Virus record (IMG/VR): IMGVR_UViG_2778261058_000012
DNA length: 4,279 nucleotides
Reading direction: 5' to 3' (one strand)
DNA from: a virus
Taxonomy: Duplodnaviria; Heunggongvirae; Uroviricota; Caudoviricetes
The notes below the pieces were generated by a model that was not told the DNA's origin, made no database searches, and saw only the letters and a program-made list of their open reading frames with translations. Below, one piece after another: positions 1-3,591 of this stretch. Each line of letters begins with the position of its first letter. Position 1 is the first letter of the stretch. Position numbers and translations under genes: made by a program.

Positions 1-55
1 TCCTGTTTACCTCTTTCTCAGGAAGTTTAGTCTCCAGGATTCCCGGGGCGGTTCA
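1..55 (-). mobile_element. Terminal inverted repeat and leader of an IS3-family insertion sequence (IS629/IS1203/IS3411-like), partial; the element body lies left of the window
   Basis: Minus-strand reading of 1..55 is TGAACCGCCCCGGGAATCCTGGAGACTAAACTTCCTGAGAAAGAGGTAAACAGGA: it begins with the TG dinucleotide typical of IS3-family ends and has a GAGG Shine-Dalgarno at the window edge where the orfA start codon would follow. Matches my recollection of the IS629 left end; not verified by search. Confidence 0.55.
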
Positions 56-76
56 CATCGCCTTTTGCTGCTTCAT
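56..76 (-). pseudogene. hokD: hokD/relF toxin gene remnant: first 7 codons (MKQQKAM) only, cut by the IS insertion
   Basis: Minus strand ATG AAG CAG CAA AAG GCG ATG (76..56) encodes MKQQKAM, the N-terminus of HokD as I recall it; the next triplet is the TGA that is also the first 3 nt of the IS inverted repeat. Position is immediately downstream of relE, as in the relB-relE-hokD operon. Confidence 0.5.
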
Positions 77-147
77 AGCCTGCTTCTCCTGTCAACGCAA
101 AGCAGAAGTGTCACCTTCGGTGCGAAACAGAGATGTCATGCTTTGGT

Positions 148-435
148 TCAGAGAATGCGTTTGACCGCCTCGCTATATACTTCCGAGCGTTCTCTTTTCC
201 CAACAGAAATCACGAAAACGACAACTTTCTCGTCTATAACCTGGTATACAAGGCGATAGCCTGAAGACCGGAGCTTAATCTTGTAACAATCAGGCATACC
301 ACGGAGCTTGTTTGCTTCAATCCGGGGTGACTCAAGTACTTCAACCAGCTTCTTTTTCAACTGTTCACGTACCGTCGAGCCCAGCTTTCGCCATTCCTTT
401 AGTGCCCGCTCGTCAAAATCCAGAAAATACGCCAT
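148..435 (-). CDS. relE: RelE mRNA interferase toxin (ribosome-dependent endoribonuclease), 95 aa
   Basis: Translation MAYFLDFDERALKEWRKLGSTV...VISVGKRERSEVYSEAVKRIL is essentially E. coli RelE; start overlaps the relB stop (TGATG), the usual TA operon arrangement. Confidence 0.95.
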   Translation of the reverse strand: MAYFLDFDERALKEWRKLGSTVREQLKKKLVEVLESPRIEANKLRGMPDCYKIKLRSSGYRLVYQVIDEKVVVFVISVGKRERSEVYSEAVKRIL

Positions 436-2150: not shown

Positions 2151-2875
2151 CCAGTGGTAGGCTCTTTTGGTCGCATGATCTCGCCATCATCACTGGCTGC
2201 CTGTTCGTAGAGACCCACGATCCGCCCCCAGATCCACTGCGCACACGCCAAATCCTCCCTGCTACCCCACTGGCGTTTTTTCGCACTAAACACAACCGCG
2301 TCGGAGTTCCGGGTTAAAAAATCCTGTTCAGTCGTCTGCGGGTCCGGTTGCGAAGCTTCCGGACGAAAAGTGTTTTTATTCTCTGTAGTAATCTCTGTTG
2401 TATTCTCTGTAAGATCATCAGGCCATTTTGACCCGATGACATTGGGTCGTTTTGAACCAATGGAGCGTTTCATTTTGACCTCTTCCATCGTGTCATTTTG
2501 ACCTGATGGAGCGGCGCATTTTGAACCGATGGATTCGCTCAATTTGCCACCATCTAAAAGCTCGCTCCCATAGTTGATCGTGTAGAAATTGGTCATATCG
2601 CGCTTTGATTTATTGAGCTTTTCACAACGCAAAAGCCCCAGCGTTTTCAGACTTGCAAACGCGCGCTTTAACGTTGACTCTGACCAGAATGGGAACTGTT
2701 CCAGCCATTGTTCCGTTGTGTTATAAATCCAGCGAACACCATCACATTCCATGCCGGAGTTGGTATCTCTCAACCAGTAGTGCAGTTGTTGCAAAACAAT
2801 GGCTTCGTTTAAGCCAATTTTCATTGCCAGCTGCGTGTTTATAACCAGTGGGCGTTCAGCAAAAAGAAGGCTCAT
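2147..2875 (-). CDS. Phage replication initiator, functional analogue of lambda O (iteron-binding origin protein); start assigned to ATG at 2875, alternatives TTG 2929 or ATG 2824
   Basis: Third gene of the dicC-led minus-strand operon, the position of lambda O. The coding sequence contains five direct repeats that translate to repeated IGSK-containing peptides (SESIGSK..RSIGSK..NVIGSK), followed by an AT-rich repeat block, the hallmark of an origin embedded in an O-type gene. The ORF-track start at 2929 is TTG and overlaps the upstream gene by 74 nt; ATG 2875 overlaps by 20 nt. Confidence 0.65.
   Translation of the reverse strand: MSLLFAERPLVINTQLAMKIGLNEAIVLQQLHYWLRDTNSGMECDGVRWIYNTTEQWLEQFPFWSESTLKRAFASLKTLGLLRCEKLNKSKRDMTNFYTINYGSELLDGGKLSESIGSKCAAPSGQNDTMEEVKMKRSIGSKRPNVIGSKWPDDLTENTTEITTENKNTFRPEASQPDPQTTEQDFLTRNSDAVVFSAKKRQWGSREDLACAQWIWGRIVGLYEQAASDDGEIMRPKEPTTG
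2378..2412. repeat. AT-rich block with three tandem 12-bp repeats (TCTCTGT-NGTA-N) flanking the iterons; candidate DNA-unwinding element
   Basis: TCTCTGT at 2380, 2392 and 2404, within TGTTTTTATTCTCTGTAGTAATCTCTGTTGTATTCTCTGTAAGA; encodes the repetitive peptide TENTTEITTENKNT. Iterons followed by an AT-rich tract is the same order as in lambda ori. Confidence 0.45.
2423..2555. repeat. Iteron array (candidate prophage replication origin) inside the O-like gene
   Basis: Direct repeats with core CATTTTGA(C/A)C starting at 2424, 2448, 2471, 2494 and 2517 (period 23-24 bp, about two helical turns), plus a degenerate sixth copy AATTTGCCACCATC at 2541..2554. The fuller consensus CATTTTGA(C/A)C(C/T)GATGG is met by the first, fourth and fifth copies only. 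Confidence 0.65.
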
Positions 2876-3377
2876 AATTCCATCCAGCTTTTTGTTGGTA
2901 TTGCTGTCGATACGCAAGTTTGAAAGCAATTGCTTTTTCTATAAGTTCGTCAGTTTCACGATCCACTACGGCAGGATCAGCAAAAAGCAGTCCGGACTCC
3001 ACCACATCGCCATATTCTTTGTTTAACCCGGCGATCATGCACGTGATGCTTTTTCCGTCAGTAATTTCACGATACAACCTGAAATCATTAATCCGGATAG
3101 CCTCCATAATTGCAGGCACTAGCGCCGTGAACTTTTCACGCTTATCCCTGGTGTCGATAGCCTTCCAGCGTTCAAATATCTTCACTCGATTAACGCCAAG
3201 CGCTCGCTGATCAATCGCGCCACCTTCATATGTGACACGCTGAACATCGATGTTCGGGCGCTCTTTCAAAGCCCAGAATGCTTCAGTGATTAATATCGTC
3301 GCCTGCTCCTGTGTCATTCCTGGTCGACATATCCAGGCATCCAGAGCCTCACGAGCCTGTTCAGGAGTGATTTTCAT
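2856..3377 (-). CDS. YdaT-family protein (CII-position regulator, toxic on overexpression in Rac), 173 aa
   Basis: Second gene of the operon, overlapping the dicC 3' end by 17 nt. Begins MKI and has an internal KREKFTALVPAIMEAI segment resembling the REK..LIPAIL region I recall from Rac YdaT; the family assignment rests on recalled similarity and synteny (cro-like, then ydaT-like, then replication gene). Confidence 0.5.
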   Translation of the reverse strand: MKITPEQAREALDAWICRPGMTQEQATILITEAFWALKERPNIDVQRVTYEGGAIDQRALGVNRVKIFERWKAIDTRDKREKFTALVPAIMEAIRINDFRLYREITDGKSITCMIAGLNKEYGDVVESGLLFADPAVVDRETDELIEKAIAFKLAYRQQYQQKAGWNYEPSFC

Positions 3378-3591
3378 TGTTCAACCGCCCCGCCCGCTTC
3401 GTCTTACGATATTCATCATAAACTTTGGGATCATACTGAAGCTCCCCGCCAGATGCCTCCTGTAGACGCATCGCGCGACCTTCGGGAACTAAATCCCCTT
3501 TCCAGCTATAAAGCGAAGCCAAACGAATACCTGCTGCTTGTGCAAGTTTTGTTTTTGAACCGAAATACAAAAGAGCGTCAGTTTTAAGCAT
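3361..3591 (-). CDS. dicC: DicC, Cro-like transcriptional regulator of the prophage immunity region, 76 aa
   Basis: Translation MLKTDALLYFGSKTKLAQAAGIRLASLYSWKGDLVPEGRAMRLQEASGGELQYDPKVYDEYRKTKRAGRLNNENHS matches E. coli DicC as I recall it; AAGGTG Shine-Dalgarno; divergent from dicA. Confidence 0.9.
   Translation of the reverse strand: MLKTDALLYFGSKTKLAQAAGIRLASLYSWKGDLVPEGRAMRLQEASGGELQYDPKVYDEYRKTKRAGRLNNENHS

Follow-up and report, generated by a model that had tools for sequence, protein, structure and literature searches.

The prophage segment and its relBE-hokD region

The window considered here, that is, the whole stretch of 4279 bases that was analyzed, comes from a cryptic lambdoid prophage of E. 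coli that resembles Qin. It corresponds, in reverse orientation, to the whole 4279-bp draft contig NLNZ01000118.1 (GCA_002229985.1), and the same sequence (100% identity) makes up the final 4279 bases of the 117-kb contig NLOO01000007.1 of the sister assembly GCA_002229605.1, in which the prophage adjoins rspB, rspA, and ynfA. The closest complete genome is that of strain VG35A2, with 99.6% identity, and bases 56 to 980 are 100% identical to the Qin prophage of K-12 MG1655.

The genes relE (148 to 435) and relB (435 to 674) are both carried by the minus strand. The relE product (95 amino acids; Pfam ParE_toxin) is identical to WP_000323025.1 of VG35A2 and K-12, and that of relB (79 amino acids; Pfam RelB) is identical to WP_000534858.1. 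Upstream of relB, in the relBE promoter region, an operator-like inverted repeat (CTTGTAATTACA / TGTCATTACAAG; 686 to 711) is identical to that of K-12; given the autoregulation of relBE, this repeat would act as the operator. The elements that characterize a relBE type II toxin-antitoxin system, namely, overlapping full-length relB and relE and an upstream operator-like inverted repeat, are thus all present, and the statement, made from the sequence alone, that relBE is intact extends to identity with K-12 in both genes and in the promoter/operator region.

Directly downstream of relE, and again on the minus strand, the intergenic region (77 to 147) contains the Shine-Dalgarno site of hokD (AGGAG at 86 to 90) and is 100% identical to K-12. 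It is followed by codons 1 to 7 of hokD (relF) at positions 76 to 56, identical to those of the intact hokD genes of K-12 and VG35A2, so that the identity with K-12 covers the entire segment from 56 to 147. The gene is the third of the relB-relE-hokD (relBEF) operon of the Qin-like cryptic prophage. In K-12, relBE is cotranscribed with relF/hokD as one mRNA, whose relF part accumulates after toxin cleavage (PMC3598666).

Elsewhere in the window, ydfV and flxA are found on the plus strand, a truncated O-like replication gene, a YdaT-family gene, and dicC follow farther along on the minus strand, and dicA and the first codons of ydfA, on the plus strand, occupy the end beyond dicC. The minus-strand open reading frame (ORF) at 2147 to 2875, which matches the "replication initiation O-like" family (phrog_391, E = 4.7e-45), includes about five iteron-like direct repeats of 23 nt (CATnnnGnCATTTTGAnCnGATG) at 2416 to 2531, which, judging from the sequence, look like the remnant of a lambdoid replication origin in a cryptic prophage. 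At a structural breakpoint located at 2150 to 2164, the window lacks about 1.9 kb present in VG35A2 (the remains of an ISEsa1 transposase, a pseudogene of the DUF977 type, and the 3'-terminal part of the O-like gene); this deletion lies between short TAGGCTC repeats and reduces the O-like protein to 242 amino acids, compared to 321. Since K-12 lacks the region corresponding to 2165 to 3097 of the window, three different deletion states share an endpoint within 15 bp. Furthermore, a 1-nt deletion at position 981 relative to both K-12 and VG35A2 causes a 3' frameshift in ydfV, whose product has 97 amino acids with an altered tail instead of 101.

The insertion sequence end and its junction with hokD

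The first 55 bases of the window correspond, on the minus strand, to the left end of an IS629/IS1203-type insertion sequence (IS) of the IS3 family, comprising its terminal inverted repeat and untranslated leader. In particular, the sequence read from 55 to 1 agrees at 55/55 positions with the beginning of complete IS3-family elements of 1310 bp (E = 9e-20), and the same 55 nt occur in the reference copies L003 (2501 to 2555) and L004 (3001 to 3055), as well as in L009 and L010. The depositors of the L004 copy (LC567828.1) labeled it "insertion sequence: IS3 family IS629," and one full 1310-bp reference copy is 99.5% identical to elements annotated "IS3 family IS629"; the 55 nt seen here do not distinguish between the IS629 and IS1203 isoforms. 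The left inverted repeat (IRL), a 25-bp terminal repeat starting with 5'-TG (TGAACCGCCCCGGGAATCCTGGAGA), lies at 31 to 55 on the minus strand and equals the left end of a complete copy. The two ends of a complete 1310-bp copy (TG...CA) pair over 25 nt with 92% complementarity, and the window shows one of them.

Base 1 of the window is the base that immediately precedes the orfA ATG in the reference copies, where the transposase is annotated as "IS3 family, programmed frameshift." The expectation of the sequence-only reading that orfA and orfB would lie to the left, on the minus strand and outside the window, is therefore borne out by the comparison as far as their position relative to base 1 is concerned, and the body of the IS is indeed missing, the contig ending 55 nt into the element. 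The IS3-family attribution of bases 1 to 55, with an exact boundary between 1 to 55 and 56 to 76, proved correct as well, given the full identity with annotated copies.

The minus-strand sequence from 76 to 56 reads ATG AAG CAG CAA AAG GCG ATG (MKQQKAM), and the next codon (55 to 53) is a TGA stop provided by the IS tip, so that translation of the stump gives MKQQKAM*. The hokD genes of K-12 and VG35A2 run on with LIALIVICLT..., for a total of 51 codons. Thus, the interruption of hokD after codon 7, as originally proposed, follows both from the translation and from the comparison with intact hokD. The hokD of the window is a gene fragment, in which the full frame of about 50 codons, with the transmembrane helix and the conserved C-terminal part, is absent.

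The position of the break deserves a comment, given the similarity between the IS tip and the hokD sequence that it displaces, with 8/10 matches over bases 55 to 46 and 9/12 matches over TTAATCGCCCTG compared to TGAACCGCCCCG. Owing to this resemblance, megablast carries the hokD alignment as far as base 46, where the match to the IS is perfect; from base 56 to base 160, the window shows no difference from the intact hokD-relE of K-12 and of many other genomes, and the true break is at 55/56. The identical junction occurs in the second, independent assembly (L005), and it is therefore not a one-off chimera.

In both assemblies, the contig stops after exactly 55 nt of IS sequence. Of the 5,426 complete E. 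coli genomes, 3,266 contain this 55-nt end, at 12,318 places in all and at up to 49 per genome. Such a stop would fit a de Bruijn assembler whose largest k was 55, on meeting a multicopy repeat, and the contig break is of the type typically induced by repeats: the draft contig presumably stops where it does because the element occurs in multiple copies in the genome and the assembler was unable to resolve them. The shared stop argues against a short solo remnant, yet it does not prove that the element is complete.

The left junction was not recovered elsewhere in the collections scanned. The 5,426 complete E. coli genomes gave no match covering at least 80% of window positions 1 to 160, and one-genome-per-species contigs, JGI metagenomes, and IMG/VR gave none that was exact over the junction. 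Our literature search returned no paper combining IS629 and hokD and none citing GCA_002229985.1 or GCA_002229605.1.

A probable simple insertion and alternative explanations

Taken as a whole, the locus is very probably explained by an IS629/IS1203-type insertion in hokD, with the consequences set out in the next section. The element, 1310 bp when complete, would have entered hokD directly after codon 7, in the same direction as the operon. IS3-family elements transpose by a copy-out/paste-in pathway via a circular intermediate and usually generate target duplications of 3 to 4 bp, and bases 56 to 58 (ATG, codon 7) would represent the 3-bp target duplication predicted here. The right junction can be predicted from the same premises as the right inverted repeat (IRR), followed by 3 to 4 nt and by hokD from codon 8 onward, namely, CCCGGGGCGGTTCA + ATG (or GATG) + TTAATCGCCCTGATC, and the end of the corresponding contig is expected to read CTCTCCAGGAAACCCGGGGCGGTTCA, then ATG or GATG, then TTAATCGCCCTGATCGTC and rem.

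This predicted junction was absent from the E. coli genomes, genome contigs, metagenome contigs, and viral contigs searched; likewise, the same collections yielded neither the orfA/orfB genes and IRR of this insertion nor its target duplication and codons 8 to 51 of the interrupted hokD. Fifteen apparent full-coverage matches to the right junction were rejected, as they consisted of IS ends located 81 to 350 nt upstream of intact hokD or inside relE.

We lean toward a simple insertion, a view to which the other insertions in the neighborhood of the operon contribute. Two cases are especially close. In the prophage PPompW_EH2201 (LC567828.1), an IS629 copy with the first 55 nt identical to those of the window interrupts rem in the same prophage module, in which rem lies next to hok; different from the window, the gene hit is rem, and a full 1310-bp copy with a 3-bp duplication (TAA) is visible instead of 55 nt. 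Three other E. coli strains, F41, K99S, and EC24.26, carry an IS629-type element within the same operon and in the same orientation, with the transposase codirectional with relBE, and flanked by a clean CCT duplication; in these strains, however, relE is disrupted and hokD is whole. The isoform of the latter insertion (L008, 1571 to 3171, in strain F41) differs from the IS end of the window at 2 of its first 55 nt, and we therefore consider it an independent event derived from a different isoform.

The alternative that weighs most, possible although on balance unlikely, is an IS629-mediated deletion or rearrangement, in which the right end of the element joins unrelated DNA and hokD codons 8 to 51, perhaps together with rem and later Qin genes, have been deleted or moved. 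The failure to find the right junction in any of the collections searched would agree with it; however, given that these collections did not contain the other contigs of the two assemblies, the missing junction is uninformative. Further points in its favor are that the present prophage copy already carries other deletions, that matching duplications were reported at only 21 of 47 IS629 sites (PMC3271280), and that two IS629 copies beside hokD (L009 and L010) have nonmatching flanks and truncated neighbors (integrase and lysozyme remnants). Against it stand the neighboring insertions described above, which are simple and have 3-bp duplications.

The two copies just mentioned (1256 to 2565 in both L009 and L010) lie 81 and 348 nt, respectively, upstream of intact hokD genes of other prophages. 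They show no target duplication, and the genes on their far side are truncated; from the sequence, this layout suggests IS-associated deletions near hok. Rearrangements at this locus are thus seen in some complete genomes, a point that weighs against a simple insertion here.

A distinct issue is whether the element, having entered by a simple insertion or otherwise, chose a site beside a sequence resembling its own inverted repeat rather than a random one. Insertion next to targets similar to the inverted repeat is reported for some members of the IS3 family. The 9/12 match between the target past the break and the IS tip would be in line with such a choice, as would the geometry expected after a 3-bp duplication, with the repeat-like target separated from the right end by 3 bp, an arrangement similar to that of the two joined ends in an IS circle. 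However, matches at the 9/12 level are frequent, with 21 of them in the 14-kb relative L001, no such resemblance is seen in the flanks of three other IS629-type insertions that have duplications, and a better site, with 11/12 matches, at 3381 to 3392 in the same prophage is unused. Moreover, IS629 is reported to lie mostly in prophages (62%), with no sequence-specific target and with duplications of 3 to 4 bp where these were seen (PMC3271280). Targeted insertion is thus improbable, and the resemblance of the displaced target to the IS tip is probably due to chance. The 11/12 sequence (TCAACCGCCCCG; 9236 to 9247 in L001) falls at the overlap between dicC and the YdaT-family gene, with no IS there.

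It is very improbable that the 55 nt are a truncated IS remnant, i.e., a solo end that is not part of a full element. Truncated IS629 copies do exist, an example being L002, annotated as frameshifted and incomplete, but an assembler would have read across a remnant that was short and unique, and both assemblies break exactly 55 nt in, as a de Bruijn assembler does at a multicopy repeat longer than its k-mer. Finally, an assembly artifact, in which the similarity of the displaced hokD bases to the IS tip favored a chimeric join in a short draft contig, can practically be dismissed, since the junction is common to two separate assemblies, a 9/12 match is far below any assembler k-mer, and the join coincides exactly with the canonical TG terminus that begins the IS.

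Consequences for HokD, the relBE transcript, and the lineage

On the reading of an insertion in hokD, the relBEF mRNA would cease to be a source of HokD, and the rest of the gene, with its native terminator, would either lie at least 1.3 kb farther away or have been lost. Intact relatives have a terminator-like hairpin about 70 nt past the hokD stop codon; the K-12 Qin relBEF locus, which encodes the same RelB and RelE proteins, retains this hairpin and the full 51-codon hokD, compared to the 7 codons seen here. On the sense strand of the IS, no terminator-like site above chance expectation was detected. With the native terminator displaced or lost and no such site in the IS, relBE transcripts should read into orfA; transcription would thus enter the IS in the sense direction of this gene, a read-through that we infer from the arrangement of the sequence.

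The sequence-only reading had also suggested that an outward-facing IS end might alter the relBE mRNA. The description of the end is misleading, in that the one adjoining the operon is the IRL and the gene of the element reads away from relBE; hence, the IS sends no transcription into relBE. What can be retained of this suggestion is that any effect on the relBE mRNA would come from the missing 3' segment of hokD and the native terminator that has gone with it. As for the RNA of the junction itself, the predicted fold of the hokD stump and IS leader was no more stable than that of shuffled sequences (z = -1.5), and the idea that structure could sequester the orfA ribosome-binding site was accordingly dropped.

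The inactivation of hokD, proposed from the beginning, is to be understood as an inference. Any 3- or 4-bp duplication at the break must include the ATG of codon 7, and the distal part then starts with ATG TTA ATC... and encodes 45 amino acids, so that a 3-bp ATG duplication would leave an ORF of this length. If the distal part persists, the loss would concern expression signals (promoter and Shine-Dalgarno site) and not coding capacity. The 45-amino-acid protein, equal to HokD residues 7 to 51, is encoded on 624 public contigs, where it is annotated as a Hok-family toxin. We rejected this sequence as a tag for the distal contig, as it is also a natural allele.

An example of this allele is found in a lambdoid prophage of strain 01_3327, in which a 45-amino-acid Hok protein (WP_044703989.1) identical to HokD residues 7 to 51 has a sok region of its own upstream (Rfam RF01794, 110.9 bits); different from hokD, no relBE genes are found upstream. 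The locus (L007, 3347 to 3640) is a canonical hok/sok locus, and the natural 45-amino-acid relative lacks the N-terminal MKQQKA of HokD. When the window was compared with Rfam, neither sok/hok nor any other RNA was detected at E <= 1, and no sok match was obtained for hokD in the relBEF context of intact relatives, including K-12. A weak isrK match, below threshold (25 to 27 bits, with a gathering score of 50), was noticed just downstream of hokD or hok in L001 (3786 to 3867, minus strand) and L007 (3649 to 3730), where it overlaps the terminator-like hairpin; it is probably due to chance or driven by the terminator.

A more far-reaching proposal, which we consider quite improbable, is that the insertion rewires the locus. 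In this proposal, orfA, located 52 nt downstream of a well-translated 7-codon stump and in sense to the starvation- and toxin-inducible relBE promoter, could be expressed at a higher mRNA level under relBE-inducing stress, and the ATG duplication would recreate, past the right end of the IS, a 45-codon hok without sok or relBE control.

Disruption of Hok-family loci by ISs is not confined to this prophage. In 1999, Pedersen and Gerdes reportedly described IS elements at chromosomal hok loci of K-12, with IS150 at hokA and IS186 at hokC and hokE. Like the locus studied here, these would be chromosomal Hok-family toxin loci disabled by an IS, but in those cases the IS, which belongs to another family, is said to lie beside the hok frame, whereas here it lies inside the coding sequence.

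In conclusion, the insertion is a real and correctly read event, an ordinary strain-specific gene disruption by a very common E. coli IS, and its importance beyond the strain itself is little. The position of the IS in hokD was previously unrecorded, and the gene hit is a nonessential prophage toxin gene. The junction is a lineage marker, found in two draft assemblies but in none of 5,426 complete E. coli genomes, and the insertion would explain where the draft contig stops. It also adds one more IS to those known in the relBE-hokD-rem module of lambdoid prophages and in chromosomal hok genes. As regards the biology of the strain, the points of interest suggested by the sequence are the presumed loss of HokD expression from the relBEF mRNA and the possibility that read-through into the transposase gene may be linked to stress.
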